In this document: piece by piece, positions 600 through 46,462 of the stretch
How the letters are laid out: each line of letters starts with the position of its first letter
Position numbering within the stretch: position 1 is the stretch's first letter
From: Clostridiaceae bacterium
GTDB taxonomy: Bacteria; Bacillota; Clostridia; CAYPLH01; DUMO01
DNA: 64,000 bases
Assembly (NCBI GenBank): GCA_012839865.1
Contig: DUMO01000024.1
Span: 19,075 to 83,074 of the forward strand
Reading direction: 5' to 3'
Notes under the pieces: generated by a model
Seen by the model: the letters and a program-made list of their open reading frames with translations, nothing else
Told to the model about the DNA's origin: nothing
The model's database searches: none
Made by a program: the position numbers and the translations under genes

Positions 600-3185
600 C
601 TATACAATGACAAGCCCATTGTCATCCGCATCAACAGTTATAGTTTTGTTTTCCCTTATGTCTCCTTTAATTATCCGCTTGCCTATTTGTGTTTCAATGT
701 ACTTTTGCATATATCTTTTTACCGGCCTGGCACCGTATACAGGCGAGTAGGCGGCATTGGCAATGAACTTCTTTGCTTCATTTGTAATTTGAAGTTTGAT
801 ATTCATGTTGCCAAGCCTCTTTTGGATGTCGCAGACAGCCATATCTATAATCCTGATTATTTCATCAATTGACAATGACCTGAACATTACAATTTCATCA
901 ATACGGTTTAAAAATTCAGGCCTGAAATTTCTTCTGAGCTCGCCCATCACTTTTTCACCGGCTTCCGGAGTTATTTCGCCAAAATTTTGAATACTCTCCA
1001 TAATGTAATGACTGCCCAGGTTTGAAGTCATAATTACAACAGTATTCTTGAAATCCACCGTTCGTCCCTTGCTGTCGGTCAACCTGCCGTCATCAAGGAG
1101 CTGAAGCAAAATATTAAAAACATCTGAGTGGGCTTTTTCAATTTCATCAAAGAGTATGACCGAATAAGGCTTCCTGCGCACTGCTTCGGTAAGCTGCCCG
1201 CCTTCCTCGTAGCCCACATACCCTGGAGGAGCCCCGATAAGTCTTGCCACAGAATGTTTTTCCATATACTCGCTCATATCAATTCTGATTATATTTTCCT
1301 CCGAATCAAACAATGCTTCAGAGAGTGCCTTCGCCAACTCTGTTTTGCCGACACCCGTCGGACCCAGGAAAATGAATGAACCTATCGGCCTTCTGATATC
1401 CTTTAAGCCTGACCTGGCCCTTATAACAGCGTCACTCACAGCTGTTACTGCATCATCCTGTCCTACCACCCTCTTATGCAAAATTTCCTCGAGATTCATA
1501 AGTTTTTCCCGTTCAGACTCAACCAGCCTGGTTACAGGTATTCCTGTCCACCTGGAAACTATCTCGGCAATTTCTTCTTCTGTAACCTCCTCCTTGAGAA
1601 GCTGCCTTTTTGTGCTTTTCTGCCTTTCTATTTCCTGTTCAAGCCTTTTTTCTAGTTCAGGAAGTGTGCCGTGTTTCAAAACTGCAAGCTTGTCCAAATC
1701 ATATGACCTTTCGGCTTCCTCTATCTCACGTTTGACCTCTTCTATCTGACTCTTCAGTTCCTTTGCCCTCTTTATGTTCTCTTTTTCAAGCTCCAACTGT
1801 GCTTTCATGGCTTCATAGCGTTCCTTGAATTCAAGTATCTCTGTTTCAATCACCTGCAGCCGCTCTTTTGAAATTGTGTCATTTTCCTTTTTCAATGCCT
1901 GCCTTTCAATTTCCAGTTGCATTATTTTTCTGCTTATCTCATCAAGTTCTGCAGGCATGCTGTCAATCTCCATCCGGATCATTGAAGCTGCTTCATCCAT
2001 CAAGTCAATTGCCTTGTCCGGAAGAAACCTGTCGGATATATATCTGTCTGACAATACAGCACAGGCAATTATTGCATTATCCGTAATCCTGACTCCATGA
2101 TGTATTTCAAACCTTTCCTTTAGACCCCGCAGGATGGATATGGTATCTTCAACTGTAGGCTGGTCAACCATGACAGGTTGAAACCTTCTTTCAAGGGCGG
2201 CATCCTTTTCGATGTATTTGCGGTATTCATCCAGAGTCGTGGCTCCTATGCAATGGAGTTCCCCCCTTGCCAGCATCGGCTTCAGTAGGTTGCCGGCATC
2301 CATAGCCCCTTCAGCCTTCCCTGCACCCACAATATTGTGAAGCTCGTCAATAAAGAGAATGATTCTGCCTTCCGACCTGCTGATTTCCTTGAGTACAGCC
2401 TTCAGTCTCTCTTCAAACTCTCCCCTGTATTTTGCGCCTGCAATCAAAGCCCCCAAATCAAGGGCGTATATAGTTTTATCTTTAAGGCCTTCGGGTACGT
2501 CACCCTTAAGGATACGCTGCGCCAGGCCTTCCACGACAGCCGTCTTTCCTACCCCGGGCTCCCCGATCAATACTGGATTGTTTTTTGTTCTTCTTGACAG
2601 AATTCTGATTACACGCCTTATCTCCGAGTCTCTTCCTATTACAGGATCCAGGCTTCCTTTTCTGGCAAGCTCCACAAGGTCCCTTCCAAAACGGTTAAGG
2701 GCTTCGTATGTCTCTTCAGGATTTTTTGATGTTATCCTTTGATTGCTGCGGACCTTGCTTAAGGCTTCCAGAAATTTTTCAGTATTTATCCCGTATTTTC
2801 TGAATATTCTGGCGGATGGGGTGTTCCGCTCCCTTAATAGCGCCAGATATATGTGCTCGACTCCAACATACTCATCTTTGAACTTTTTTGCTTCATCACC
2901 GGCATAAATAAGGAGCTCGTTAAACCTTCTGGTGGCATAAAGCCCTTCTGAAGCTCCTCCATATACTTTTGGCAGCTTCTCCAATTCTGCCTCTACATCC
3001 CGGGCAACCATTTCAGGATTATATCCCAACACCTCAACAAGCCTTGGTATAAGGCCTTCTTCCTGCTTGAGCAAGGCATAATGCACATGCTCCCCGTCAA
3101 GCTGTTGGTGCCCCATCCTTACAGCCGTCTCCTGAGCTTGTTCTATCATCTGCTGCGCCTTCTCAGTAAATTTGTCAATACCCAT
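600..3185 (-). CDS. clpB: ATP-dependent chaperone ClpB (Hsp100 disaggregase)
   Basis: 861 aa with two AAA+ modules ([16 protein letters not shown] Walker A), a Clp N-terminal domain and a long coiled-coil middle domain. RBS AGGTGA precedes the ATG. Confidence 0.95.
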
Positions 3186-3222
3186 GAAAAATCACCTGTC
3201 TTGCATAAAAATATAATTTAAC

Positions 3223-3241
3223 TTTGACTATCTTTGACTAT
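3223..3241 (-). promoter_or_regulatory. CtsR operator (tandem heptad AGTCAAA-GAT-AGTCAAA) in the clpB promoter
   Basis: The minus strand reads ATAGTCAAAGATAGTCAAAG. This is an exact fit to the CtsR direct-repeat consensus (A/G)GTCAAA-NAN-(A/G)GTCAAA, about 40 bp upstream of the clpB ATG. Confidence 0.6.
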
Positions 3242-3621
3242 TGTATTAATATTACACCCTTTCCAAAGAAAATGCAATAGCGTTGAAAATATTTATGCAA
3301 ATATAACCGGTCTTTTTTATGAAATGTTACAGTTGCCCATGTCAAAGTTCACTTCGCGTAATGGTTCACTCGGTAAAAGGAATGTGTGCAGAATAATAAC
3401 AGTTGGCTTTATTTTGTTAGAAAACCAGGTGAGCTGAAGGCAAAAATGCGAGAAAAAAACTTCCACTCATACAATCAGCCCGATACCTCCTTTCAGCTTT
3501 CTTTCATTGAAGCTTGCATCCTCCATATGGTATACTTTAATTAAACTAAATTGAAAGGGTGGTCTGTGTGGGGTTGAAGATATCTGCCGTGAGATCTGAC
3601 AAGGAGAAAAAGGAGTTTATA

Positions 3622-22273: not shown

Positions 22274-22422
22274 CTTTACACATTTAATAAAGCTTCAGAA
22301 AGCCTCGGAATCAGTCAGGCTGCACCTGTGTCGTTTACAAGAAGAATTGCAAAATTCATAATTCCTGTGTCAGAGGATTTGCAAAATTATATTAAAGACA
22401 ACGGCTTAACACAAAACAATAA

Positions 22423-23760
22423 TCAATTGAAAATGCTTTGAGGTATGTTGATCCCCTTTTCCTTCAACTTTTTTACAAATCCGGGTACAATGCCTGTATA
22501 AACAAACTCACCTTTTACCTTTCCCCTGTTATCCACACCTTTTTGCTGAAACCTGAATATATCCTGCAGTGTTATTACATCTCCTTCCATTCCTTGCACC
22601 TCGGTTATATATGTAATCTTCCTGCTGCCATCCATAAGCCTTGACTGGTGAATAACAAGGTCAATGGCTGATGCAATCTGGTCCCTTATAGCCTTTAAAG
22701 GCAAGTTGAACCCCGACATCAACACCATTGTTTCAAGTCTTGCCAGCATGTCCCTTGGGGAGTTTGCGTGTCCTGTCGTAAGGGAACCGTCGTGACCCGT
22801 GTTCATTGCCTGAAGCATGTCCAGTGCTTCTCCTGACCTGACCTCTCCTACAATAATCCTGTCAGGACGCATTCTTAAGCTGTTTTTCACAAGATCACGG
22901 ATTGTTATTTCACCTTTCCCCTCCAGGCTTGCCGGTCTTGTCTCAAGCCTTATTACATGCTCCTGGGAAAGCTGAAGCTCTGCTGCATCTTCTATTGTTA
23001 TGATTCGCTCATCATTTGGTATAAAAGATGACAGTACATTCAGGGTTGTTGTCTTACCGCTTCCGGTCCCTCCCGAAACAATTATGTTCAGCCTTCCTTC
23101 GACGCAGTACCTTATAAGCTCTGCCATCTTTGAATTTAGAGTGTTAAAGCTGATCAAGTCCTCCATTTTAAAGGGGTCTTCAGAAAATTTTCTAATCGTA
23201 ATTGAAGGGCCATCTATGGCAAGTGGAGGAATAATGGCATTTACCCTGGATCCGTTAGGGAGCCTTGCGTCAACCATGGGAGAGCTTTCATCAATTCTCC
23301 TGCCAATAGGTGCTACAATCTTTTTTATTACATGCATCACATGGCTGTTGTTTTTGAATTTTACATCTGTCAGTACCAATTTCCCTTCCTTCTCAATATA
23401 TACCTGGTTATATCCGTTTACCATGATTTCAGTAACTTTATCGTCTCCAAGGAACCCGGTAATCGGTCCAATCCCGACAATTTCATCCAAAAGTTCCTCC
23501 CGGATTTTACTTTTCTGACTGGTTGTCAAGTTAAGGGCTTCCTGTTCGATATGCTTCGTAAGAATGGAATGAATTTTCTTTTTCAGTTCCTCGTTCTTAT
23601 CGGAGATTTCATCAAAATTAATATCCAGTTCATCAATTACCTTGTTATGTATCTTCATTTTTAAAATTGTATAAGGATCTGCTTTTTTTTCATTATACCT
23701 GCCAAATTTTCTGTCTGCATTTACCTCTTCCAGTCTTTTTACAAGAGACATTACCTTCAC
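22423..23760 (-). CDS. cpaF: Tad/Flp pilus assembly ATPase CpaF/TadA
   Basis: A VirB11/GspE-family secretion ATPase with Walker A SGGTGSGKTT and an Asp box. Confidence 0.9.
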   Translation of the reverse strand: MKVMSLVKRLEEVNADRKFGRYNEKKADPYTILKMKIHNKVIDELDINFDEISDKNEELKKKIHSILTKHIEQEALNLTTSQKSKIREELLDEIVGIGPITGFLGDDKVTEIMVNGYNQVYIEKEGKLVLTDVKFKNNSHVMHVIKKIVAPIGRRIDESSPMVDARLPNGSRVNAIIPPLAIDGPSITIRKFSEDPFKMEDLISFNTLNSKMAELIRYCVEGRLNIIVSGGTGSGKTTTLNVLSSFIPNDERIITIEDAAELQLSQEHVIRLETRPASLEGKGEITIRDLVKNSLRMRPDRIIVGEVRSGEALDMLQAMNTGHDGSLTTGHANSPRDMLARLETMVLMSGFNLPLKAIRDQIASAIDLVIHQSRLMDGSRKITYITEVQGMEGDVITLQDIFRFQQKGVDNRGKVKGEFVYTGIVPGFVKKLKEKGINIPQSIFN

Positions 23761-23761
23761 C

Positions 23762-24916
23762 TCACACCGTCAATTTGCTGCACATTTCTTCAATTGCCTT
23801 GCATACTTTTATTTTGTTGTATTTGTCGCTGTCGCATATAGGTTGTCCTCTATTGACTGACAAACCCACAATTTTGTCTTTTCTGGGTATCATTGCAAGC
23901 AAATTGTCCTTGAAGGTTTCTTCCACATCATTCTTGCTTACGCCATAACCTGCATCCATTTTATTAATAACAAGTTTCACCTTGCTTTTATCATAGCCCA
24001 GGGAACGCATTACATTTAACCCCAGTTTGGTATTTTTCAATGCTGTTATCTCCATGGTGGAAACAAATATAATCGTATGGGAGTAATCCAGAATAAAAAG
24101 AGTATTATCGTTGAAGTTGATGCCTGTATCAATTACCAGCACATCATAATGCTTCTGACAGGCTTTAATAATTTTTTCAATATCATTCCTTCCGATGTAC
24201 TCTGCAGCTTCCGGTTTCCCCGGGGCAAACATCATATGAAGGTTTTCATTGTAAATATACAGATATGGTATTATATTTTCATAAGAATCCAACTGGCCTT
24301 CATCCACCAGGTCCAGAATGCTTTTGTGATTAATCTGGTTGGTTAATATGGAGATATCGCCAAATTGCAAATCCATATCAATTAAAAGTACTTTTTTGTT
24401 CGGATTTTTACTTAACATGACAGCGCAGTTCAATGCCAAAACAGATTTTCCGACACCGCCCTTGGAGCTGAAAAAGGTTATGACTTTCCCTTCCCTGTCC
24501 TTCTCCTGACGGCTCAACATTTTTATCTGCCTGTCCCTGTATTTGGTATATGTAACCCGGATGGTCTCAATCAAATCGTCCACATTGAAAGGTTTTATTA
24601 TATATTCCTTGGCTCCGTTCAGCATCGCCTTTTTCAGGTATTCGCTTTCTCCCTGCACCGACATGATTATAACTATTACATTGGGAAAAGTATTTGTAAT
24701 CTGTTCGGTAGCCTCAAGCCCGTTTAATACAGGCATGTTTATATCCATAAGAACTACATCGGGATTTACTTTTGGTATAAGCTCCAGTACTTCTTCGCCG
24801 TTTGTGGCTTCCCCTACAACTTCAAAAATGTCGGACTCCATCAGTAATATCCTTTTAATCAGGGTGATAGTATCTATAATATCGTCCGCAATTAATACTT
24901 TGATTTTATTATTCAT
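23762..24916 (-). CDS. Response-regulator receiver domain fused to CpaE/TadZ-like ParA/MinD ATPase
   Basis: The REC domain is intact: an acidic pocket (LIADDII), the phospho-acceptor Asp in LMDINMP, and the conserved Lys in IIKPF. The P-loop is a deviant Walker A (SSKGGVGKS). Confidence 0.8.
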   Translation of the reverse strand: MNNKIKVLIADDIIDTITLIKRILLMESDIFEVVGEATNGEEVLELIPKVNPDVVLMDINMPVLNGLEATEQITNTFPNVIVIIMSVQGESEYLKKAMLNGAKEYIIKPFNVDDLIETIRVTYTKYRDRQIKMLSRQEKDREGKVITFFSSKGGVGKSVLALNCAVMLSKNPNKKVLLIDMDLQFGDISILTNQINHKSILDLVDEGQLDSYENIIPYLYIYNENLHMMFAPGKPEAAEYIGRNDIEKIIKACQKHYDVLVIDTGINFNDNTLFILDYSHTIIFVSTMEITALKNTKLGLNVMRSLGYDKSKVKLVINKMDAGYGVSKNDVEETFKDNLLAMIPRKDKIVGLSVNRGQPICDSDKYNKIKVCKAIEEMCSKLTV

Positions 24917-24929
24917 TGTGCCACCCCTG

Positions 24930-25895
24930 TCAATTCAATACTGGAATTTTAAGTACCTGTCCGGTTATGATAATATTCGGATCTTCAATATTGTTTGCTT
25001 CCATAATCAACTTGTAATTTTCATCGTTACCATAGAATTCCCGGCTGATTTTAACCAGGGTATCACCGCTTTTAACAGTATAATTTATATATTCAGTGCT
25101 GTTTGTTGCGTTATTGTCGTCTTCACAAGGTGTATCAGCATCTGTTTGGGAAGGTTCATCATAAGCCGGTATTGAAATCTCCTTCCATATTACTCCTTGG
25201 GTTTCTATTACACTGTCATCTTTCAAAGGCCTCAGGGCAAGCGTTATATTGCCTATGTTGTCAGCCAGTACAATCTTTTCCACATCAGTTGCGGCAACTG
25301 ACAAAGTAACTAAAAACATCGACGGAACATTTTCTGAAGACTTTTCTGTTTCATCCCTGTTTAACAGTTTATCAATTGCCAGGACTTCAATATTCTGAAG
25401 CAGCATCTTTGAAGAGTCATACCTGACAATCTCCGAATCCTCTGTTTTCTCGTCAAAAGTAGCGACTATATCAACAAAGTCACCAGGTTTGATTAATTGG
25501 GAAACCCCTGTGCTTCCTAATACGCTGATTGAAATTGCTCTATGGTTTTCCCTTACTCTAAGGCTCAATTCCGTTTCCAGGGCATCCAATAGCTTGTCAT
25601 GATGAAAGCCTTCATTTTTCAGTATGGTTTCCCTGGTGTACTTGCCTTCAATCTGGCTGTAATCACGCAAATAATCCGCAAAGATTGGATTATCTTCAAC
25701 TTCGATTTCTCGAATCATGTTCCTTTTAATTAAAGTTCTAGGAGGTATTACATCCGCGGCAACAAGAATTTTTGTCAAAGGAACTTCCTTTTCCGGCTCC
25801 TTTAAAGTTCTTAGATATACAAAAACAGCCACTGCAGCAATTGCAGCCAGCACAAATGATATTAAAACCAGTTTCTGTTCCGTACTTTTCATCAT
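24930..25895 (-). CDS. cpaB: Flp pilus assembly protein CpaB/RcpC with C-terminal LysM domain
   Basis: N-terminal TM helix, a SAF/CpaB core and a C-terminal LysM (YTVKSGDTLVKISREFYGN...TGQVLKIP). Confidence 0.8.
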   Translation of the reverse strand: MMKSTEQKLVLISFVLAAIAAVAVFVYLRTLKEPEKEVPLTKILVAADVIPPRTLIKRNMIREIEVEDNPIFADYLRDYSQIEGKYTRETILKNEGFHHDKLLDALETELSLRVRENHRAISISVLGSTGVSQLIKPGDFVDIVATFDEKTEDSEIVRYDSSKMLLQNIEVLAIDKLLNRDETEKSSENVPSMFLVTLSVAATDVEKIVLADNIGNITLALRPLKDDSVIETQGVIWKEISIPAYDEPSQTDADTPCEDDNNATNSTEYINYTVKSGDTLVKISREFYGNDENYKLIMEANNIEDPNIIITGQVLKIPVLN

Positions 25896-25902
25896 GATAC
25901 TC

Positions 25903-26880
25903 CTACCTTGACAGTTTTACACCGTATGCTCCCGTATCATTCAAACTCATATCTATTACACCTTTTGTAACGTATTGCACAAATCTGCCAACCAGCTCTG
26001 CATTTCCTCCGCTATTGCGCACTTCCTCAACATAAAACTGTGCAAAGCCCACCACCTGCACCTGGCCTCTTCCATTAACCTCAAGGGTATCCACCAACGG
26101 AAGTGTCCATAAGCGGATGGAATCTCTGCTGAAATTGTTAAAGGTGCTGTTCTCCTGCTGTATATAATCCCTTATTGCATTGATGGCGCCTGACATGTTT
26201 CCTGTTTCAGTATCAATATAATCTCCGACTGATAATGTACCGCTGAAACCATAAAGGGCATTGTTCCTGTAAGTGCTTTGCCCGGTGCCTCCAAGGGCAA
26301 CGGTGCCATAATTGCCGCAATAACCGTCTCCTGCGCCTTTTTTGAGTATTACGACATCACCATAGGTATAATCAAAAATTTCAACTGCAAAAGGTCTTAT
26401 TCCCCCATTCACAGTTTTTATTGGTCCTATAACCGCCTTTGTCGCAGCAGCCACATCACTGTTATATATGCCCAGTATGGGGGCGAACAAGTGGTTCACG
26501 CTCAAATTGCCTTCTATTTCAATGCTTTTATTGTCAGGGCTTATTTTAATTACGGTATTGTCAGGATCAATATTGTTTTTAATAAGATATTCCAAAGCGA
26601 CACTTCTTGCCTTCGCTTCACCGGCAGGCAGCTCAAGAGCCGCTGCCAGGGCTGCTGCATCAATGGCATTGTACAATCTGGCTTTTTCTATATATACCAT
26701 CCCGACATCAACAGAAAGGGCCATAAACCCCAACAAAGCGCTTAGCAGCAGGCATGTAATAATTGAGACGCTTCCTTTTTTGCCTTTAAACAGCAGCAGC
26801 TTCTTATGACTCCTTGCCTGTACCATTCCGGATAAGGCAAGCAATTCAAAAACTGAATGTTCCACTGTCATCACCTTCAT
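25903..26880 (-). CDS. TadG-like (TadE/G-like N-terminal domain) pilus-associated protein
   Basis: KGSVSIITCLLLSALLGFMALSVDVGMVYIEKARLYNAIDAAALAAA is the TadE/G-like N-terminal motif. The remainder is a large Gly-rich extracellular domain. Confidence 0.6.
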   Translation of the reverse strand: MKVMTVEHSVFELLALSGMVQARSHKKLLLFKGKKGSVSIITCLLLSALLGFMALSVDVGMVYIEKARLYNAIDAAALAAALELPAGEAKARSVALEYLIKNNIDPDNTVIKISPDNKSIEIEGNLSVNHLFAPILGIYNSDVAAATKAVIGPIKTVNGGIRPFAVEIFDYTYGDVVILKKGAGDGYCGNYGTVALGGTGQSTYRNNALYGFSGTLSVGDYIDTETGNMSGAINAIRDYIQQENSTFNNFSRDSIRLWTLPLVDTLEVNGRGQVQVVGFAQFYVEEVRNSGGNAELVGRFVQYVTKGVIDMSLNDTGAYGVKLSR

Positions 26881-27206
26881 TCAATTCTCATGGAGACTTT
26901 GGCATGCAGTACAATTGTGTCGTTGAACAATAGATTAATTACAGGTACTGTAAGTTGATAATTATAATTTGCTTCCACGGTAAGAGTATTTCCTGATATC
27001 CTGCTACCCGGAAGCGGTGTTATATTAATTTCCAGATGGCTTTCATCCAGGACAGGAGAGGCAGACATCATCAAATGCATTATTTCAGCATCTGAACTAC
27101 CTGTAATGCCTGCCCTGGCTCCTTCCCGGACTGCGTTGTTAAGTGCAAGATATGCATTTAAAACCATACCAAATTGCGCAATTCCCATAACAATTATCAG
27201 CAGCAA
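26877..27206 (-). CDS. TadE-like pseudopilin (N-terminus probably extends upstream to about 27266; start codon unclear)
   Basis: In-frame upstream codons read GGQSLAEFAVVLPLLLIIVMGIAQFG. This is the classic TadE-like processed N-terminus. RBS AGGAGG is present at about 27240. Confidence 0.6.
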   Translation of the reverse strand: MLLIIVMGIAQFGMVLNAYLALNNAVREGARAGITGSSDAEIMHLMMSASPVLDESHLEINITPLPGSRISGNTLTVEANYNYQLTVPVINLLFNDTIVLHAKVSMRIE

Positions 27207-27288
27207 GGGTAGGACAACTGCAAATTCAGCAAGGGATTGCCCTCCTGGTAGATATAAAAAGTCACATTATGTAAAGTAATTAGGTCAT

Positions 27289-27383
27289 AAAAAAACAGGG
27301 ACTTTGGTCCCTGTTTCTACTGTTCAGAAAGACATAAAAAATGAACAGCAGCCCTGACAATGCTGTTTACAGCCGTTGTTCAT
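27289..27383 (-). terminator. Tandem rho-independent terminators after the degS/degU-like operon
   Basis: The first is CAGGGACcaaaGUCCCUG followed by U7. The second is a long imperfect hairpin (AUGAACAaCgGC...GCuGcUGUUCAU) followed by U6. Confidence 0.6.
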
Positions 27384-27395
27384 CTTGCGGGATTA

Positions 27396-27477
27396 GTGAC
27401 GTACTCCCTCCTACGCTCTCACTAAAGTGAGCAAGGCGGCTTAGAAGCGGAAGACTTCTTGCTGCTATATGTTAAAC
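27396..27477. repeat. Copy A of a structured ~80-bp intergenic repeat, immediately 3' of the response-regulator stop
   Basis: It shares GACGTACTCCC and CTTCTTGCTGCTATATGTTAAAC blocks with copies at 32566-32640 and 60847-60906. It contains an internal hairpin CTCAC-TAAA-GTGAG. Confidence 0.7.
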
Positions 27478-27480
27478 TTT

Positions 27481-28155
27481 CTATTCCTTGTTGCCAAACT
27501 TCGACTTATAATAATCTTCGATATTATTCTCAATGGAAAAGATGGTTGCCTGGACACGATGGCTTACGTTCAGCTTCCTGAAGATATTGGTAATGTAGTT
27601 TTTCACCGTCTTTTCCGATATATACAGGGCATCCGCTATTTCCTTGTTGCTCAAACCTCTCGATATATTAAGCAAAATTTCAATTTCCCTCTGTGAAAGA
27701 CAGTCAAAAACACCTTCGGCATTTTTATTTTTTATTTCTGAGAACAGCAAAGATATCAGCGCTTTATCAATATACTTTTCTCCATTATAGACTGTTCGAA
27801 TTGCACTCACAATCTGAGTTCCTGCAGAATCCTTCAGTACATATCCGTCTGCTCCTATATTAATTGCCTTGTTAATCGTCAGCCTGTCATTCTCTATGGT
27901 AAGCATAATCACTTTGACATTCTCATATTGCTGCTTTATTTTTTGGAGCAATGTAATACCGTCAATAACCGGCATATTTACATCCAGCAGCAATACATCA
28001 GGCTGATACCTTTTCAGCATGACCATTACTTCTTCTCCGTTTTTTGCTTCACCATAAATGGCAATATCATCTTCCATGCTTATAATTCTTCTTAAACCCT
28101 GTAGTATCAGGTCATGATCATCTGCAATCGAAACTCTAATTTCCTTTTTTTTCAT
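27481..28155 (-). CDS. DegU-like response regulator (NarL/LuxR family)
   Basis: A REC domain (ADDHDL, LLLDVNMP) and a C-terminal LuxR-type HTH (LSQREIEILLNISRGLSNKEIADALYISEKTVKNY). Confidence 0.85.
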   Translation of the reverse strand: MKKKEIRVSIADDHDLILQGLRRIISMEDDIAIYGEAKNGEEVMVMLKRYQPDVLLLDVNMPVIDGITLLQKIKQQYENVKVIMLTIENDRLTINKAINIGADGYVLKDSAGTQIVSAIRTVYNGEKYIDKALISLLFSEIKNKNAEGVFDCLSQREIEILLNISRGLSNKEIADALYISEKTVKNYITNIFRKLNVSHRVQATIFSIENNIEDYYKSKFGNKE

Positions 28156-29185
28156 CCTTAATCACCTCTCGATTAACCGGCAGCTTTATGGTATATGTGG
28201 TCCCTTTCCCTTTTTCAGACTGTATCTTTAAACTGCCCCTCAGTTGATTTACCCTGTCCTCTATACCTATCAATCCATAAGAAATCCCCTTGTTTCTTGC
28301 GTTTATCAAGGTTTCCTCCACGTCAAACCCAATACCGTCATCAGATATAACCAGCATTAAATATTTCGTGCCATAATCAAGCTTGATTTGAGCATGGCTT
28401 GCCCTGGCATGCTTTTTTATATTATTAAAAGCTTCCTGGATAATACGATAAACTGCAACTTGTATGATAGGCTCAATTTCTTTATGTACTGGCTTCATTT
28501 TTATGTCCAGTTCTATTCCTGTCTCGTGCATTATCATTTTTACGGTCTCGGAAATTGTTTCATTCAAACCCAAATCATCCAGCGCCATGGGTCTTAAATC
28601 AAAAATGATATCCCTTACTTCCTTAAGGGCCCTTTTGACACTTTGTTTCAGGTCTTCCAATTCTTTAAGGCCTTCGTTGAAATCCCTTTCAATCACCATC
28701 TTGCAAATATCTGCCTTCATTACTGCATTGGCCATATGCTGCGCCGGCCCGTCATGAACATCCCTTGCAATTCTCTTTCTTTCGTTTTCCTGGGCCTCCA
28801 ATATCTTTATGCTCAATTGTATTTCGGAATGGGCCTCAGCACCTTCCAGGGCTGTAACAACATCCCCCTCCAGGTACATTAAAGCAACACTCATCTGACT
28901 CATCACTTTTTCAGCACTTTCAATATTCTGCAATGATTTTTTCAATGCTATTTCTATTATTGACCTCCTTTTTAACAGTTCCTTCTCTTTGTTTTTTTCG
29001 ATAATCAGTGCTATTCGAGTGTCTTCTGCGTTTTTATAGGCAGCTTTAATATCTTCTTCCGTAAATGTATCAAACTTTTTTGAAACCTCTGCAAGTTTTT
29101 GTCTCGCAACTTTATCCTGCTTTTCCAGTTCATCCACCCTTGCAATAGTCTGCTTGATATCCTGTTTAATTGCAGCCAACTCCAT
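28136..29185 (-). CDS. DegS-like cytoplasmic sensor histidine kinase
   Basis: No TM segment. An N-terminal DegS-type coiled-coil sensor domain and the H-box [18 protein letters not shown] (compare DegS IHDGPAQMLANVMMRSEL). HATPase_c follows. The gene overlaps the regulator start by 20 bp. Confidence 0.85.
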
Positions 29186-31212
29186 TTCAAGATTCTCGGA
29201 GACGGAGTCGGTGACGGTGTCGGTGTCGGAGTCGGTGTCGGAGTTGGCGTCGGTGTCGGAGTCGGTGTCGGAGACGGTGTCGGTGTCGGACTCGGGCTCG
29301 GACTCGGGCTCGGGCTCGGCGACGATGTCGGCGTCGGGCTCGGGCTCGGACTCGGCGACGGACTCGGGCTCGGGCTCGGGCTCGGACTCGGACTCGGGCT
29401 CGGACTCGGGCTCGGCGACGGACTCGGCGACGGACTCGGGCTCGGTGACGGAGTCAATTCAGCCGGGTTTATAACAGCGCTGATTACCCTGACTTCCTGG
29501 GTTACCGTAAAGGTTACGGGAAGCATATTATCTGCCGAAATTTCCACGTTTGCCGTATATACTCCGGCCGGCAGCCCGTCTTTTGCCCTTATGGTAAATG
29601 TGGTGGAAGGTGTCACCTCATCAAGATTTTTAGCTTCAGGCTGGGTGATTTCAAAGGCATCCGCATCATCCCCGCTCAAGGTTACCGTAAGATTTGCAAT
29701 ATCCTCAGTTGCCTCCCTTGTCACTGTTATACTCCTTGTCTCCTGCATACCGGAAGCATAACCTATACCAAGTATCGTCATAACCTGATCGTCGATAGGT
29801 ACTATACTGCCTGTTGCCCACCTGGCATAAAGCGTGACGTTACTGTCACCCATGACAAGGGTCGAGCCTTGCAAATAATCCGCTCCTTTTCCATCGGCTT
29901 TGGTGTTCCAGCCTTTAAAGACATGACCTGTTTTTGACAGTTCATTGATGTTACCCGTGACAGTAACAGTTTGTCCCGGCTTATATACATTGGTGTCAAC
30001 GGGCACATCGCCCCCGGTATTCCCGTTCCCGTCATAGGTTACAGTGTAAAAGTCAACTTCCGCAACATTGAAGGTGTATCCATTAGGCAGCTTGCCGGGT
30101 GCAGTTATGTTGAGATCTATTGTAAAGTTCTCTTCACCCGTCAGTGTCAGCAAATAAGGCTGACCGTTCTCCACCTGCTCATCGTTTATGGTAATAATCG
30201 CGCCTTCCAGTGAAACTTCCGGTATAATGCTGAAACTCTCCAGTTCTTTTGGTATTTCCAGTACATAGTCGCTTATGTCCTTATTGAATGAAGGCATCAG
30301 ATCAAACCCGGGCAGTCCTTCAAATATCACGTTGTCTATATATGCCGGTGCAATGGCGGAGGACTCTACAGGCGCAGGATACATATCCACTACAAACATG
30401 TCTTTAAATTTATAGCTGTCATTTACCTTTATTTCAGCTGCCAGTACACACTGCCCTGCCTTCAGCGCTTTAAGGTATCCATCCTCTAACACTGCATTTT
30501 GGTCATCGGAGGCCATCCATATACCCGCTGCTTCGTCATTTTCGCCTGTTATTCTCAGAATTCCGCCTCCGAGATAAACCGGGTTTTCCTTTGGTATAAC
30601 CGAATATACATCCAAAGTATCATCAGATGAAACCTTCTGGATATCTCCCGTTATGCGCATAAGTTCCTTCTCACCCTGGGGTACCACAGGTTGCTGGTTG
30701 CCTTTAAAATGATAAATATAGTTCTTTATAATTGTAATCGGCTCATCGCCAAACCCATACACAATTTCATTCTTGCTTGTAATCAAAAGGGTGCCGAACC
30801 CCCGCCTCATATAAGCCGGATTATCCGTTATTTCAATGGCATTTTCCCTGTAAAAACCCTCGATGAGATTATGCCGTATTCCAAGGCCATAAGTACCCGG
30901 CCAGAGGAACGTGGTTTCCCCGTCAATTTTAAAGTGTGTCGGGACGGTGACGTATATGGTTGAATCATCTTCCACATTTACATTCTGGTAACCGATTATA
31001 TATTCATTACCTCCCGCGTCTTTCAGATACACTTCCCACTGGTCCGGATCATCCCTGAGGTAGCTTAGGTTGTCCCCCTTTATCTGAATAACCCTGTATT
31101 TGTCTTCATGATACAATTTGTTGGGAGAAATATATGAATATTGTACATTCGGCATATCCACAAAGGACGGCATGGCAACCACGTAGGCTTTTAAGTATGA
31201 CGTATGATTCAC
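29011..31212 (-). CDS. Cell-surface-type protein with cadherin-like and Listeria-Bacteroides repeat domains, ending in an SP/TP linker; probably a fragment or fusion
   Basis: A cadherin-like beta-sandwich ([10 protein letters not shown]...SFSIIPEV), a Listeria/Bacteroides repeat ([13 protein letters not shown]...[12 protein letters not shown]) and a C-terminal (SP)n(TP)n tract. There is no signal peptide. The last about 60 codons are an out-of-frame read through the degS-like start. Confidence 0.5.
29186..29460. repeat. Tandem 12-bp repeat array (GAGTCGGTGTCG-like units) encoding an (SP/TP)n linker on the minus strand
   Basis: A direct read shows about 22 near-identical hexamer and dodecamer units. 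They translate to PSPSPS...TPTPTP in the frame of the upstream surface-protein gene. Confidence 0.9.
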
Positions 31213-31361
31213 TCTTTTTACCGATACTACAAAATCGTATACGTTTACGTCATTGAGAGCTGTGGGTACAAATTTCCAATGAATAAGTTCCGTATATCAG
31301 GGATGAAGAAATGCACATGTTTGTAGGACAAGTTTATCTTAAGTAGAAAGGAGGTGCAAAC

Positions 31362-31529
31362 ATGCGGAAATTTAAAAAGTCCTATGATGCGGGAAAAGTA
31401 AATATATCTTATTCTTCAGGCGGAAAGATGATATTCTTTAAAAAATTACTGGCTGCGATCTTGTCAATACTTATATGCGCTACACTTCCGGTTTGTATTT
31501 TTTACGAAAGTCTGAGGGCGAGCAGGTGA
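31362..31529 (+). CDS. Small (55 aa) predicted membrane protein
   Basis: A strong RBS AAAGGAGG lies 7 nt before the ATG. It has a basic N-terminus and one TM helix (IFFKKLLAAILSILICATLPVCIFY). It falls below the ORF-track length cutoff. Confidence 0.35.
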   Translation: MRKFKKSYDAGKVNISYSSGGKMIFFKKLLAAILSILICATLPVCIFYESLRASR

Positions 31530-31564
31530 AGTATTGCTTAAAATGCTTGATCAGGTATTTTGGA

Positions 31565-32344
31565 TCAGAAAACCCGCATTCCAACGAAATATCTATCACC
31601 TTTTTTTGTGCCCAGAAGCAACTTGGCGGCATGTTCACACCTGCTGTAATATAGCATGTTCAAAAAGGTTGAACCGAATTTTTCTTTAATGTCGTGGGAT
31701 AAATGGTAAAGACTTATATCAAGCTCTTCTGCAATATCTTTAAGACTTGGATTCAACTCAAATTTGCTCCCCAGGCAATTTATAATTTTTCTGAGCCTTT
31801 GCACCAGCTTTTCATCGAAGGCTTCAGTGCCGTATCCCCAGCGTAAAAAGTCGAAATTGTATGTAACATGAACAAGAAGTTCTGTTAAATTATTCTTTAT
31901 GCTTGCCGAATACCCGGGTTGGAGCCTGTCGCCATTTACCGCCAGAACGAGCCTGGCGACATGCTCTTTGAGTTCATTGTACCTTTGGGGCAGTTCCCCT
32001 TCGAAATAGGCGGAACAGCAATAGATATACAAGTACTTGTTATCCGGAAAAAGGTTTCGAAAAAATTCCCCTGAAATCTGTATAATCAGCGTTTCATTAT
32101 TTTCGCTTTGACTAATGCAATGCAGCTCGTTAACATTTACAAGTGCTATATCGTTTTCTTTTAATTGAATTTTTTCATCACCGATGACCATATTGACTGA
32201 ACCCTTCCGGACTTGCACAATTTCCATAGTATCATGCCAATGATAGGGATACTTCCCAACATAACCGGAAAACATTTTTACAGGCAGTCCTTCGGAAAAA
32301 TCAAATAACTCAGGACGCATACATTCCCCCGTTATATAAAGCAA
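31565..32344 (-). CDS. AraC family transcriptional regulator (cupin sensor + AraC HTH)
   Basis: An N-terminal cupin-like domain and a C-terminal AraC-type HTH pair. Confidence 0.8.
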   Translation of the reverse strand: MLYITGECMRPELFDFSEGLPVKMFSGYVGKYPYHWHDTMEIVQVRKGSVNMVIGDEKIQLKENDIALVNVNELHCISQSENNETLIIQISGEFFRNLFPDNKYLYIYCCSAYFEGELPQRYNELKEHVARLVLAVNGDRLQPGYSASIKNNLTELLVHVTYNFDFLRWGYGTEAFDEKLVQRLRKIINCLGSKFELNPSLKDIAEELDISLYHLSHDIKEKFGSTFLNMLYYSRCEHAAKLLLGTKKGDRYFVGMRVF

Positions 32345-32565: not shown

Positions 32566-32640
32566 TCTCCCGCCTACGCTCCCGCTAAAGTGGGCAAGGT
32601 GGCTTAGAGGCGGGAGACTTCTTGCCTCTATATGTTAAAA
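32566..32640. repeat. Copy B of the structured intergenic repeat
   Basis: TCTCCCGCCT...AGGCGGGAGA forms a perfect 10-bp outer stem. The inner hairpin CCCGC-TAAA-GTGGG shows compensatory changes relative to copy A. It ends in CTTCTTGCCTCTATATGTTAAAA. Confidence 0.7.
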
Positions 32641-32715
32641 TTGTTACAGTGTTTTGCAAATGCCTTAAAGCTTCAGACCAAAATCGGTCATATACTCATT
32701 CTAATTGCGAGTTCC

Positions 32716-41176: not shown

Positions 41177-44100
41177 TTATTCTGCAGTGCTGTTTATTAC
41201 CACCTTGCTGAGGTTGATTGACCAATATGGTGCAGCAGGCGGATCATTACCGTCATGGACGGTTTTATTGAGTGCGTTTACTTCACCGGTCGGTCTGATC
41301 TTGATCTTATATATACCATCGCTCAGCACAGGGCTTGTGTATATGAGCACATCCGAGGTTTTAGCTTCCGCATACACATCTACAAGCTGCTCTGCAATAA
41401 CAACTTTATCATTTGCATCAAGGATGCTGATTGCAACGATACCTCCATATGGGGCGTTCTCTGCGTATACCGATATGCCAATGCCCTTGAATTTGTAAAC
41501 TACATACGCATCTGTGGCACCCCTGTCATTGTATATAGTCTTAGCCCCGCTAACTGCCCATTTGGTTGTTGCCTTGCCATGTAAATTCATGGCAGTACCG
41601 TCGGAAAATGTATATTGGTTAAGTTCATCGCCTTGATTTGCCTTGTCAAAATTCAGTGTCACCTCAGTCGCTACTGGTGCTGTGGCTTTGTTTATAACTG
41701 TAATTTTGAAGAGGTTGACAGACCAGTACGGTGCAGTCGGAGGATCATTGCCATCGTTGACGGTTTTGTTATTTGTATTTACTTCGCCTGTAGGTCTGAT
41801 CTTGAGCACGTAGACACCCTTGGCAAGTTCGGGGCTGGTGTACACAAGGGCATTGGCTTCCTTGGCCTCAGCATACAGGTCCACAAGCTCTTCTGCCTGT
41901 ACAACCTTTCCGTTTTCGTCAAGTATGCTTATTGCAACAATTCCGCTGTACGGAGCCCGTTCAGCATACAGCATGACCTGAGTGCCTTCAAATTTGTAAG
42001 CCACGTAAGCATCTGCCGCACTCCTGTCGTTGTACAGGCTCTTTCCTCCACTGACGGCCCATTTGGTTGTTGCCTTGCCATACAAGTTACCGGCAGTACC
42101 GTCGGAGAATGTGTACTGATTTACTTCTGTGCCCTGGTTTGCTTTATCGAAGTCCAGAGTCAGCTCTTCCGGGGTCTCCTGCTGGGCAGGTGTCGGTGTC
42201 GGCGTAGGTGTTGGTGTAGGTGTGGGTGTAGGTGTGGGATCAGGTGCCTTGCTGGCAATGGTGACTTTACTTAAATTGATAGACCAGTAAGGTGCCGTCG
42301 GAGGATCATTGCCATCGTTAACGGTTTTGTTGTTTGCATTTACTTCACCGGTAGGTCTTACATTGAGCACATAAATACCCCTGGCAAGTTCCGGACTGGT
42401 AAATACAAGAACATTAGCCTCTTTGGGGTCTGCATACAGATCCACAATCTCATTGTGTACAACGCTGCCATTTGCATCAAGTACGCTTATTTCAACTTTA
42501 CCGCTATATGGTGCGCGTTCAGCATACAGGGAAATCTGTGTACCCTCAAACTTGTAAGCAACATAGGAATCTGTTGCACCCCTGTCGTTGTACAGGGTCT
42601 TTCCTCCACTGACTGTCCACTTGGTTGTTCCTTTGCCATACAAAGTAGCTGCAGTACCATCGGAGTATGTGTACTGGTTGACATCGGTACCCTGGTTGGC
42701 CTTGTCAAAATCCAGAGTCAGTTCTGCCGGTATTGCAGGTGTAGGTTCAGGTGTCGGCTCAGGTGTCGGTAAAGCCGTTCCTTTAACAGCAACACCAACT
42801 CTGCTCACATTCACAGACCAGTATGGAGCAGTCGGAGGATCATTGCCATCGTTAACAGTCAGGTTGTTCTTATTGACTTCACCTGTAGGTCTTATCTTTA
42901 GCTTATATGTGCCCAAATCAAGTCTGGGGCTTGTGTAAACAAGTACATTCTGTTTTCTTGCTTCTCCATAAAGATCAATTATTTCTTCTGCATGTATGAC
43001 TTTGTCATTTGCATCCAGTATGCTTACGGCTGCCTGACCGCTGTAAGGAGCATTTTCACCAAACAGCAATATCTGTGTACCGGTGAAGGTAAATATAACA
43101 TAGCTGTCCGGTGCGGCTCTGTCATTATACAAGCTATTGGCTGAACTTATTGTCCAGTTGGTAGTTCCTTTACCGAATATTGTGGTTCCAGTTCCGTTAT
43201 CATAGGTAAACTGGTTAATTCCGGTACCATGGTTGTCTTTGCCGAAATTGTAATATTCAATTACTTCACCGGGCCATGGAGTCGGTGACGGGTCTGGAGC
43301 GGGTGTAGGTGTAGGAGTCGGAGTCGGTGATGCATCCGGTACGGGTGTCGGTGTCGGTGCTGCGGGTACAGGTATCGGGGTAGGCATCGGTATTATACCC
43401 CAGTAAAGGTTTTCAAGGAAACGGATATCCGGGGCGGCGCCAGAAGCAAGCCTGGAATTTCCGCTTGCACTTAAAGTCCTGGATACGGCATAACCTTGAA
43501 TATCAGAATTGCCACCCAGCGCGAGTTCTGCATTCGGTGCATAGATAACACCTGCATCAACTTTTACATTTCCATCAGCTTTCACTGAACTTCCACCTGC
43601 TACGAGATTGCCAACCAGTTTGCTGTTCCCGCCAAATTCAACATCAGCCTTCTGAGCATATATGGAGCCGTAAATTGCAGTATTCCCGCCAATAGTTACC
43701 TTATTGCTTCCCAGATAGTAAATTATAGCATCGTCGGGGTTGCCTCCTGCATTGATTCCCATGCCTTCAATCTCAATACTGTCTTTTACAAACAGAATCA
43801 ATTTGCCATTCCCTGTTTTGTTTATTTTTATGCTTCCATTCTGGGCTATTTTTAATGTATTGCAGGTTATAATTATATCCTCGTCGCCAATATCCACCCA
43901 TAACGGCTTCCTTATCAGTACATTGCCATAGGCAGCACTTTCGCTTATGGCAGCTTTTCCTACAGCTAATGGACTGGTGGCCAGGTCTCCCCTGTTCTCG
44001 AGAACGGGAACATCAGGAGCATTCGGCATGCGATAATCTCTGCCTGCTGATGCAAAGGTCTCACCCTTCACAGTTGCAGAACCGGAAACAGATATGCCAT

Positions 44101-46462
44101 CATTGCCTGCATTCGTACCCAGGTTACCGGTTATGCTTGCTGAACCTTGCAATTTGATATTGCCCAGTGAGAAAATCATATCCACCTTTGGTACACTGAA
44201 ATGTACCGTTCCATTTACAAGGCTGATATCAAAAGTACCCTGTGGAACATTAACTGTTACCCATCCATCACCTTTTGCCTTAACATTGGCGGTCTCGCTT
44301 CCGAGTTTTACTCCGGATATTCCGGGGTAATAGAAGGTCACATCTGTTCCGGGAGATACAATACAGCCATTTTTATCGTTCATGTAGATACTTACATTAT
44401 CATTCGAAGTAAAGCCCTGTTTCAGGGAAGATCCATCGCTGAAGCTCTTTCCGCTTCTTACAAAATAGAAGCCTGTTGAGCCCTTATCGTTGCGATACAT
44501 TGCAGCAAGACCCTGGAACGCGAAGTTGTCATATTTAACTTCTTTTGCTCCTGAAGATTCCAGAGCATAGTCTATTGCATTGCTGTTATGATATATAATT
44601 GCACCGGAGTAATCATTTCCGGAAATGCTTATCATGTCTGCTTTCTTATGATTGGCATCACTTGGGAAGAGTACTGTAACAATATTCTTCTTCCCTGTTG
44701 TTGCATCAGTTGAATATGTTGAATACAAGTACCTTGCAATAAATGAATTGCCATAACTTCCGATGGCGCCCTTCTTAATTTCGGTATAATCAGGCGCAGT
44801 GCCCAGGAAAATGTTTAAATCGACGTTTTTTCCGGTTATCTTGTTCACAGTCCATTTATACTCTTTGTCGGGGTGAACCACAGTGTAACTGTCAGACGGC
44901 GGATGCAGTGCAACATGCGCTGTCTTCCCGGGAGTTTTTGCCGTCAGCTCATCAAAGAGAACCCAATACCCGTTGTTAACACCATCAGAAGATATTGAAA
45001 CGAGGTTCCTGATATGCTTGCCATTTGCCAGGGCTCCTCCTGAATCTCCTGATGCGTAGCTCAAAAGGTCGGATACAAAACCTTCAGATATTCCGGCGCC
45101 ATATTTGGCTACATGGTCATTTGTTGCCGGCGGGTTGTATTCATTTGTAAATTTATAATCTATAAGCGCTGTATTGCCTGATACAGCCCTGTTGCTTATG
45201 TAATCCCATGTAAAGTCTTCTACTCCGCTTCCCCAGTTGTTGTAGCCCGAGTTAACCAGCAGAAGTTCACCGTATGCAGCAGTATTTATGGCATTGACTT
45301 CCTTATGGCTGTGACCATCGTCAGATTTGGGATTCCACAAAACTGCTCTCAGAGCGTTGGGATCATCAGTGTGCTCAAAAAGGTATGCACCGCCGTCATA
45401 GTAAATCTTGCTCTTTGCAGGTTCTGCTTCAGGCATGTCGGTATCAAGGAGAACATAATTCAGGAAGCGGCCGTTCGGGAGACTGTAGCCCTCCATAATC
45501 CATGCTGCATATTTTGCGGCATCTTCAGAAAATCTGCCTGCCTTGAATATGGAGTATCTGCGGGCCATTGTATTGTTATAGACCGAATCTCCAAATACCC
45601 ACATACGTTTATTTGCAGTTACTGCATGACCATAAAGCCATTCATAGAAACTTTTGATCTGGTAGTTATTGTAGGTATCATAAAGTCCCGTATAGGCCAA
45701 TACGTCCATAAAATACTGCTTGGCATGCCTGTCTGAATTGAACCTGGCGTTTCCGTAACCTGGCCCCGGCAGGCTCACACCGTCTGCTGACAAATAGCGT
45801 GTAACACTGTAAACACCGCTGTTGATAACCTGATTAAGACGTTTAGTGTCATTTTTATAGACCGTCCAAATTCCCCGGGCTCCCCAGAGGGCTGAATCCC
45901 AGCTGAAATCATATGCCCAGAACCAGTCATTCATCTTTTGAAGAATTTCTTCAGCAGTGGTCAACTGTTCCTGGGTAAGTTCAGGATGAATAACATCCAG
46001 GGCAATAACTGCGGCAAAAAATGCAGTACTTGGCATAACGGCATACGTCCAGTTGTTGCTTGCCAATTCATCATATATATTGCCTTCCACACCGCTCTTG
46101 AAATACTTCATTGTGTCAAGTATTTTGGCGATATACTTATCCTTGTTAACTGGATCCAATATGTATGCCAGTGCACAGGTATCCATGATGTCAGCTATCC
46201 TGAAGCACTTGTTTGTGTAGTTGTCAGCCACACTATACACAAGATTGTTTGCATCGCTGATTGCTGTAGTCTTAAGTGACTTCCAGGGTTCCCTGGCAGC
46301 ACGGCTTCTGAGTTCTTCAAACTCTGAAGACTTTACCAACAAAAAAGGGTGCACTTGTTCCGAAGCGCTGATACTTTCAGGAACGACTAAAACTGTCGAA
46401 ACCGTGAAAATAATAACCAACATTAATGTTGATAATATTTTCAAGAATCCCTTTTTACTCAT
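41177..46462 (-). CDS. Secreted multidomain polysaccharide lyase (heparinase II/III-like catalytic region, beta-helix region, and 4 tandem ~165-aa modules joined by PT linkers)
   Basis: A signal peptide (MSKKGFLKILSTLMLVIIFTVSTVLV). The N-terminal 650 aa has an alpha/alpha-toroid plus heparinase II/III-like beta-sandwich character. Gly-rich GGN repeats suggest a beta-helix. PT linkers occur, and four repeats of a W/Y-rich module each end in NDGNDPPTAPYWS. No dockerin or SLH domain. Confidence 0.8.
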   Translation of the reverse strand: MSKKGFLKILSTLMLVIIFTVSTVLVVPESISASEQVHPFLLVKSSEFEELRSRAAREPWKSLKTTAISDANNLVYSVADNYTNKCFRIADIMDTCALAYILDPVNKDKYIAKILDTMKYFKSGVEGNIYDELASNNWTYAVMPSTAFFAAVIALDVIHPELTQEQLTTAEEILQKMNDWFWAYDFSWDSALWGARGIWTVYKNDTKRLNQVINSGVYSVTRYLSADGVSLPGPGYGNARFNSDRHAKQYFMDVLAYTGLYDTYNNYQIKSFYEWLYGHAVTANKRMWVFGDSVYNNTMARRYSIFKAGRFSEDAAKYAAWIMEGYSLPNGRFLNYVLLDTDMPEAEPAKSKIYYDGGAYLFEHTDDPNALRAVLWNPKSDDGHSHKEVNAINTAAYGELLLVNSGYNNWGSGVEDFTWDYISNRAVSGNTALIDYKFTNEYNPPATNDHVAKYGAGISEGFVSDLLSYASGDSGGALANGKHIRNLVSISSDGVNNGYWVLFDELTAKTPGKTAHVALHPPSDSYTVVHPDKEYKWTVNKITGKNVDLNIFLGTAPDYTEIKKGAIGSYGNSFIARYLYSTYSTDATTGKKNIVTVLFPSDANHKKADMISISGNDYSGAIIYHNSNAIDYALESSGAKEVKYDNFAFQGLAAMYRNDKGSTGFYFVRSGKSFSDGSSLKQGFTSNDNVSIYMNDKNGCIVSPGTDVTFYYPGISGVKLGSETANVKAKGDGWVTVNVPQGTFDISLVNGTVHFSVPKVDMIFSLGNIKLQGSASITGNLGTNAGNDGISVSGSATVKGETFASAGRDYRMPNAPDVPVLENRGDLATSPLAVGKAAISESAAYGNVLIRKPLWVDIGDEDIIITCNTLKIAQNGSIKINKTGNGKLILFVKDSIEIEGMGINAGGNPDDAIIYYLGSNKVTIGGNTAIYGSIYAQKADVEFGGNSKLVGNLVAGGSSVKADGNVKVDAGVIYAPNAELALGGNSDIQGYAVSRTLSASGNSRLASGAAPDIRFLENLYWGIIPMPTPIPVPAAPTPTPVPDASPTPTPTPTPAPDPSPTPWPGEVIEYYNFGKDNHGTGINQFTYDNGTGTTIFGKGTTNWTISSANSLYNDRAAPDSYVIFTFTGTQILLFGENAPYSGQAAVSILDANDKVIHAEEIIDLYGEARKQNVLVYTSPRLDLGTYKLKIRPTGEVNKNNLTVNDGNDPPTAPYWSVNVSRVGVAVKGTALPTPEPTPEPTPAIPAELTLDFDKANQGTDVNQYTYSDGTAATLYGKGTTKWTVSGGKTLYNDRGATDSYVAYKFEGTQISLYAERAPYSGKVEISVLDANGSVVHNEIVDLYADPKEANVLVFTSPELARGIYVLNVRPTGEVNANNKTVNDGNDPPTAPYWSINLSKVTIASKAPDPTPTPTPTPTPTPTPTPAQQETPEELTLDFDKANQGTEVNQYTFSDGTAGNLYGKATTKWAVSGGKSLYNDRSAADAYVAYKFEGTQVMLYAERAPYSGIVAISILDENGKVVQAEELVDLYAEAKEANALVYTSPELAKGVYVLKIRPTGEVNTNNKTVNDGNDPPTAPYWSVNLFKITVINKATAPVATEVTLNFDKANQGDELNQYTFSDGTAMNLHGKATTKWAVSGAKTIYNDRGATDAYVVYKFKGIGISVYAENAPYGGIVAISILDANDKVVIAEQLVDVYAEAKTSDVLIYTSPVLSDGIYKIKIRPTGEVNALNKTVHDGNDPPAAPYWSINLSKVVINSTAE

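Follow-up and report, generated by a model that had tools for sequence, protein, structure and literature searches.

A 64,000-nucleotide (nt) stretch of contig DUMO01000024.1 from a Clostridiaceae bacterium, referred to below as the window, contains a 733-codon open reading frame (ORF) that resembles a surface protein, ends in a Ser-Pro/Thr-Pro (SP/TP)-coding repeat array and runs directly into degS', a gene encoding a DegS-type histidine kinase. We found that this ORF is very probably the remnant of a gene for a wall-anchored surface protein of about 3,000 residues, and that a rearrangement of this gene also took the 5' end of degS. The scar is real and recent and is of the ordinary pseudogene or deletion-scar kind; this instance is undescribed and unsurprising. 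An earlier annotation, made from the nucleotide sequence alone (the original prediction), had read the junction as the scar of a deletion or rearrangement. This held up, since every DegS orthologue examined possesses the segment that is missing here and homology to them breaks off precisely where the array ends. The internal loss of 3,888 bp, the decayed 5' stump and the damaged neighbouring genes described below go beyond that prediction.

Stepwise decay through four or more lesions would account for the present structure. The 5' end with its signal peptide would have been lost, leaving a stop codon and out-of-frame debris, and 3,888 bp of the centre would have been lost in frame, a change that is polymorphic, with one metagenome strain keeping the segment. 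Everything downstream of the linker would have been lost by deletion or another rearrangement whose ends lie at the last base of the SP/TP array and about 126 nt inside degS, an event that would also have taken the degS promoter region, ribosome-binding site (RBS), start codon and about 44 conserved codons. Some strains carry additional 1-bp frameshifts.

Lesions in the surface-protein gene

A word-indexed homology search with the whole ORF returned hundreds of matches confined to the InlB B-repeat, which makes up about 11% of the ORF, and only three informative proteins. The full-length relatives were recovered only when HMMER was run index-free against 1.84 billion representative proteins, and a second search, using as query the N-terminal part of L001, a more distant copy of the gene with 89% nucleotide identity that is truncated differently, added almost nothing new. 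The HMMER relatives comprise P0122 (2,871 amino acids (aa), 56% identity) and P0123, P0124 and P0126 (2,375-2,608 aa). ORF residue ~8 aligns to residue 403-420 of these proteins, all four of which begin with a typical signal peptide, and Pfam found three SLH or three CWB2 domains as C-terminal anchors in P0122, P0123 and P0124. As determined by blastp, ORF residues 10-227 correspond to P0122 418-636 (60% identity), while residues 226-383 correspond to P0122 1873-2032 (51% identity).

The metagenome locus L020 codes for a collinear orthologue that exceeds 3,000 aa and whose 5' end runs off the locus. Here, blastp equated ORF residues 3-230 with residues 242-471 of the L020 fragment (71%) and ORF residues 232-587 with 1719-2075 (62%). 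Beyond the last shared Ig-like module (…VTFTVTQEV…), L020 continues for about 900 more residues, which comprise two module pairs (~480 residues), a long Pro/Thr (PT)-rich linker, another domain and, at the C-terminus, a wall-anchor region. An intact family member would start with a signal peptide and an N-terminal region of ~400 residues, followed by a conserved core, a centre of ~1,250-1,300 residues with FN3-type modules, then Ig-like, cadherin-like and InlB-type modules, and finally a Pro/Thr/Ser linker, one more domain and three SLH repeats. The original prediction had expected a longer gene with a signal peptide and a C-terminal module, and the full-length homologues indeed have both, with the SLH or CWB2 domains standing after the PT-rich linker. 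The window copy retains ~585 residues plus the linker out of roughly 3,000 residues, or about one fifth.

The domains named in that prediction were found as well. The ORF matches the Flg_new/Listeria-Bacteroides repeat family (PF09479) at residues 389-463 with 46.6 bits (cut-off 27; E 3.6e-12), and its Cadherin-like match of 19.9 bits lies under the cut-off of 24.2, whereas the aligned block in P0122, P0123 and P0124 scores above it (28-52 bits). No Sec-type signal peptide was detected on the ORF in a hydrophobicity scan from the upstream in-frame stop, as had been predicted: the peak 11-residue Kyte-Doolittle value over the first 80 residues counted from the TGA at 31297-31299 was 1.25, compared with 2.3-3.3 for the signal peptides of the four full-length homologues on the same measure. 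Likewise, no SLH or CWB2 anchor was found in the ORF by Pfam, or in the 64-kb window by tblastn with the four full-length proteins. None of the candidate ORF starts has an RBS, with predicted pairing to the 3' end of 16S rRNA of -0.7 to -3.1 kcal/mol, compared with about -10 kcal/mol for degU and tadZ.

Coding sequence of the family nevertheless extends upstream of the GTG start. In tblastn, P0122 residues 380-636 align to window positions 31287-30532, that is, 25 codons past the GTG and to within a few codons of the TGA, and blastn homology to L001 begins at 31295. Out-of-frame remnants (..NLSYK..FIPDIRN..), whose similarity to P0004 was read by eye, reach upstream to about 31336. The ~400 codons expected upstream of this 5' stump are gone.

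The missing centre was found in a strain of the same species. The metagenome contig L002 (JGI 3300010011) is 99.9% identical to window 37000-30520 and 100% identical to 30519-29424, and between these two stretches it has the additional segment 6952-10839; these 3,888 extra bp amount to 1,296 codons, are in frame, and correspond to P0122 637-1872, the central FN3-type region that the window does not have. The junction at 30519/30520 carries no long repeat. The long allele of L002 is itself broken by a stop-rich insert of ~147 bp (L002 7921-8067). This insert opens with a short palindrome and sits at the equivalent of P0122 residue 966, and no copy of it occurs in the 64-kb window. Furthermore, a 1-bp deletion at 29930 in L003, L004 and L005 reduces the product to a 456-aa protein (P0001). 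The relic protein, if made at all, would be cytoplasmic and without a role; most likely the relic is translated into nothing useful, because it has no RBS, leader or anchor and ends in an out-of-frame tail.

The repeat array and the truncated degS

Tandem Repeats Finder placed the array at 29196-29452, with periods of 6, 12 and 30 and a top score of 175. From one unique anchor to the other, it spans 258 bp (29197-29454), equal to 86 SP/TP codons, and is separated from the degS ATG at 29185 by 11 nt; the predicted arrangement of array and start codon was therefore found, and the predicted length of 275 bp was not. Three-frame translation showed that the final 61 codons of the ORF (RILKWSW...) are degS DNA in another frame, which agrees with the earlier reading. 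We considered and rejected a fusion of the ORF to DegS by read-through, as the two are in different frames and the repeat units have lengths divisible by 3.

The same junction between array and degS' occurs in L017 (ENA, sample DRR066659) and L019 (JGI 3300022230), which come from other samples and pipelines than the window, and all three same-species assemblies that cross the junction carry the truncated degS allele; the junction is thus independent of any one assembly. Outside the array, the strains are ~0.1% apart. The array itself measures 228 bp in L017, which is short of the window's 258 bp by exactly one 30-bp unit, and 299 bp in L019, where it carries a frameshift; these lengths may be affected by the tendency of short-read assemblies to collapse or distort repeats. 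The array is a slippage-prone repeat whose length differs among samples, in agreement with the slippage that had been predicted. In L019 (6477-6803, covering array and junction), a 1-bp loss in the array makes the relic ORF stop at a TGA one base ahead of the degS' ATG (TGAAATG), a layout typical of translational coupling.

The DegS' protein lacks its N-terminus. Its Pfam DegS (PF05384) match covers only profile positions 35-144 of 159, so that the input domain is incomplete. HisKA_3 (63.2 bits) and HATPase_c (47.3 bits) both score over their cut-offs, and an alignment of 29 orthologues showed that the invariant columns are kept, including the HDGPAQ motif. Compared with clostridial orthologues, DegS' falls short by 42-46 residues, about 44; the original prediction was right about the truncation and put its size too low, at about 35 residues. 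All 29 aligned DegS orthologues possess this ~44-residue N-terminal segment, with 11 nearly invariant positions, and ten relatives have a further 42-50 open and conserved codons upstream of the window DegS start point; they come from a genome collection from which this species is absent and whose best DegS match is 80% identical. In a search of 5.8 billion proteins, 118 of the best 120 hits had lengths of 389-415 aa; the other two were the 349-aa protein of this species itself and a 221-aa call from L017 that is frameshifted. An exact look-up of the window DegS' gave no match, as it is one residue apart from the database copy P0269; identity to the closest orthologue is 80%.

The breakpoint could be placed to the base. 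The tblastx homology of four relatives (L006, L007, L009 and L010) starts at exactly 29197 in each of them and continues through degU and the tad genes; this places the breakpoint at 29197/29198, where the array has its last base. The trinucleotide GAG (29197-29195) fits both sides and may represent a 3-nt microhomology. Nothing of the 6-kb upstream flanks of these four relatives was found in the 64-kb window, which also does not contain the Cys-rich, ~180-aa gene located directly 5' of degS in most of them, and the missing degS 5' end was not found elsewhere in the 64 kb. The leaderless architecture that ends in the linker and abuts degS was seen only in this one species.

Pairing prediction with the 16S rRNA 3' end identified no RBS ahead of the ATG at 29185 (-3.0 kcal/mol, compared with -10.1 kcal/mol for degU), and a promoter and terminator scan gave 17 sites against 12.5 expected, with no convincing promoter upstream of degS' on its strand. 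DegS' is probably poorly expressed or translated because it has no RBS, and degU may still be expressed alone. DegS's N-terminal domain has been treated as a sensing domain in a chimera study (10.1101/2021.10.04.462985). In the AlphaFold model of the orthologue P0270 (mean predicted local distance difference test (pLDDT) 70; pLDDT 72-93 over residues 10-130), the input domain forms a hairpin of helices 8-80 and 87-157. According to this model, the lost DegS residues 1-44 would be the first half of helix 1, which would pack against the part of helix 2 leading into the kinase core. With this half-helix missing, the input domain would be crippled and signal input lost or deregulated.

Alternative readings of the locus

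An assembly artefact, in which two contigs ending in Pro/Ser/Thr-coding repeats were misjoined and the surface gene and degS are not truly adjacent, is scarcely credible. The array is indeed hard to assemble, with four same-species short-read contigs (L002, L003, L004 and L005) terminating within it; however, L017 and L019 cross it with an identical junction, the degS side holds no repeat and is orthologous sequence from the first base after the array, and a misjoin would leave the missing degS 5' end unexplained. It is also very improbable that the architecture is native, with the 733-aa protein being complete, functional, leaderless or non-classically exported, and ending in a flexible SP/TP tail. 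Against it stand the collinear homologues 4-5 times longer that carry signal peptides and wall anchors, a conspecific strain that retains 3,888 bp of the missing centre, homologous coding debris with a stop upstream of the start, the lack of an RBS, 61 final codons that are degS out of frame, and a frameshift at 29930 in three assemblies and in the array in another. In its favour are the frame that stays open over 733 codons, the annotation of the ORF by gene callers in several assemblies, and a ratio of nonsynonymous to synonymous substitution rates (dN/dS) of 0.17-0.19 against L001.

A further reading accepts the scar as real and holds that degS' is expressed and working, maybe deregulated like hyper-active degS alleles, so that DegS-DegU would be rewired rather than inactivated; translation would then start from the internal ATG 29185 on a read-through transcript. 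We regard this as possible but rather unlikely. The absence of an RBS before 29185 and of a convincing promoter upstream, where promoter-like sites are near chance expectation, argues against it, as do the loss of eleven nearly invariant residues together with half of helix 1 and the frameshift in L017; a length this short occurs in none of the 118 orthologues. The kinase core is intact, with HATPase_c and with HisKA_3 retaining its conserved histidine motif, and the truncated allele is present in all three junction-crossing assemblies, but with the strains only ~0.1% apart outside the array, an open frame is uninformative on selection. The TGA one base before the degS' ATG in L019 would permit translational coupling, and degU overlaps degS' and has a strong RBS, both of which are consistent with a working gene. 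A more specific proposal, that the truncated DegS is fixed in this biogas-reactor species and signals to DegU independently of input, with rewired control of the tad pilus, is improbable, and the same low probability applies jointly to its corollary that degS' translation depends on ribosomes reading through the relic ORF. If the truncated DegS is active, the locus offers a natural experiment on the N-terminal helix of the DegS input domain.

Several points weigh against stepwise gene decay. The dN/dS value points to purifying selection over most of the divergence between the window and L001, so that the decay would be recent, or parts of the protein are perhaps still used; the decay of the surface gene would then be young and lineage-specific, in a gene constrained until recently. 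The degS' frame is uninterrupted over 349 codons with all kinase motifs in both the window and L019, and the extra G at 28868 that breaks it in L017 is not present in L018, which was assembled from the same sample, and may have arisen in assembly; the short-read caveat on the array lengths belongs here too. In addition, the event could be a simple deletion, an inversion or a translocation, a role of the repeats in causing the break is hypothetical, and a second, intact degS may lie outside the 64 kb covered. We count the frameshifts in the ORF (29930), the array (L019) and degS' (L017, 28868) as evidence for decay, as they point to relaxed constraint in the population.

Surroundings of the locus and comparison with known systems

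The coordinates of the features discussed are collected in Table 1.

Table 1 Features of the relic surface-protein gene and the adjoining degS'-degU genes in the 64-kb window
Feature	Position	Strand	Basis
Probable surface-protein relic ORF, 733 aa, GTG start	29011-31212	-	ORF list
Decayed stump 5' of the listed ORF start, with in-frame TGA 31297-31299	31213-31340	-	tblastn, blastn, stop mapping
N-terminal homology block, ORF aa 10-227	30532-31185	-	blastp, HMMER
Internal-deletion junction, 3,888 bp lost in frame	30519-30520	-	comparison with L002
Ig-like and cadherin-like block, ORF aa 226-383	30064-30537	-	blastp, 51% to P0122 1873-2032
InlB B-repeat (Listeria-Bacteroides repeat) domain, aa 389-463	29824-30048	-	Pfam PF09479
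Ig-like domain, final globular module ahead of the linker	29455-29820	-	62% identity to L020 module
(SP)n(TP)n-coding tandem array, 258 bp	29197-29454	-	Tandem Repeats Finder, anchor-to-anchor length
Breakpoint between array and degS-derived sequence	29197-29198	-	tblastx start, identical in L017 and L019
ORF tail, out-of-frame read over degS remnant, no protein module	29011-29196	-	three-frame translation
degS', 349 codons, 5'-truncated histidine kinase gene	28136-29185	-	Pfam, orthologue alignment
degU, response regulator, intact	27481-28155	-	Pfam Response_reg and GerE

The degU gene is co-oriented with degS', overlaps its end by 20 nt and has a strong RBS; its protein is identical in L017 and L018, and L019 has a 224-aa DegU. 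Over 22400-28155, degS-degU lies directly 5' of a tad/flp pilus cluster, as in L006, L007, L009 and L010, an adjacency that suggests a conserved regulatory link in these Clostridia. Within this cluster, a 306-bp deletion at 27243/27244 has taken out flp, which encodes the 66-aa pilin (Pfam Flp_Fap), together with the first ~15 tadE codons, leaving tadE with no proper start. The deletion is common to the window and L018, and the segment is kept in L019 (8746-9051).

On the other side of the relic, an AraC-like gene (31480-32344, reverse strand) is frameshifted in an A-tract at about 31607. The tract counts 7 A in the window and 8 in L002 and L019, both out of frame, and it would take 6 or 9 to bring the gene back into frame. 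In L001 this gene is intact (316 aa). The identity between the window and L001 is uneven (L001 420-1249 against 2767-3539), at 73% in DNA for the AraC-like gene and 89% for the adjoining surface-gene block, a difference that could stem from recombination of the surface gene or from its transfer. A 55-codon ORF on the forward strand (31362-31529) is situated between the relic and the AraC-like gene and overlaps the 3' end of the latter, which is on the opposite strand. It has a perfect RBS (AAAGGAGGTG) and a strongly hydrophobic segment (ILSILICATLPVCIF), and is annotated as a gene in six assemblies with no Pfam match on record.

A 76-bp direct repeat with 87% identity (27404-27479 and about 32567-32642, both intergenic) flanks the AraC-like gene, the relic, degS' and degU. 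The repeat is internally complementary and gave no Rfam match. Its sequence was considered as a link between L001 and the region downstream of degU, and this was rejected because the match is an intragenomic direct repeat. Elsewhere in the window, a 1,761-codon ORF (41177-46462, reverse strand) contains two more Pro/Thr linker arrays (42188-42247 and 43277-43330) and probably encodes another large multidomain surface protein.

The relevance of these findings is chiefly to annotation and the triage of genome scans: the 733-aa "surface protein" needs to be marked as a gene remnant and the 349-aa "DegS" as a 5'-truncated gene, and neither should serve as a family representative. The locus provides a well-resolved natural case of stepwise decay with a base-pair scar, of which intermediate alleles survive in metagenomes, namely those of the 3,888-bp internal deletion, the frameshifts and the flp-tadE deletion. 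More speculatively, the damage to an adhesin-like protein, DegS and the Flp pilin suggests the loss of surface and adhesion traits in a reactor-adapted lineage.

Three known systems bear comparison with this locus. Length-variable Pro/Thr/Ser linker arrays of clostridial surface and cellulosomal proteins share with the window array the periods of 6, 12 and 30 bp and the variable length; in contrast, the window array no longer joins two modules, and one of its alleles is out of frame. Nor does it behave as a phase-variable (contingency) locus, as its length varies and one allele is frameshifted, yet no functional gene is switched; the variation has no visible functional consequence because it falls in a gene that is already a relic, lacking both leader and anchor. 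With the DegS-DegU systems of Bacillus subtilis and Clostridium, the locus shares the domain order DegS, HisKA_3 and HATPase_c together with a NarL-type regulator, and with those of the clostridial relatives L006-L010 it also shares the degU overlap and the downstream order tadE-tadG-cpaB-tadZ-cpaF, whereas the first ~44 residues, the native start, the RBS and the upstream neighbour are gone here. Finally, compared with the giant SLH- or CWB2-anchored clostridial proteins, an unnamed family represented by P0122, P0123, P0124, P0126 and L020, the window copy is without the signal peptide along with the first ~400 residues, the centre of ~1,250-1,300 residues, and everything past the linker including the wall anchor, but it has in common with them a Pro/Thr/Ser linker after the globular modules and two collinear blocks at 36-71% identity and, with L020, also the InlB B-repeat and the last Ig-like module.

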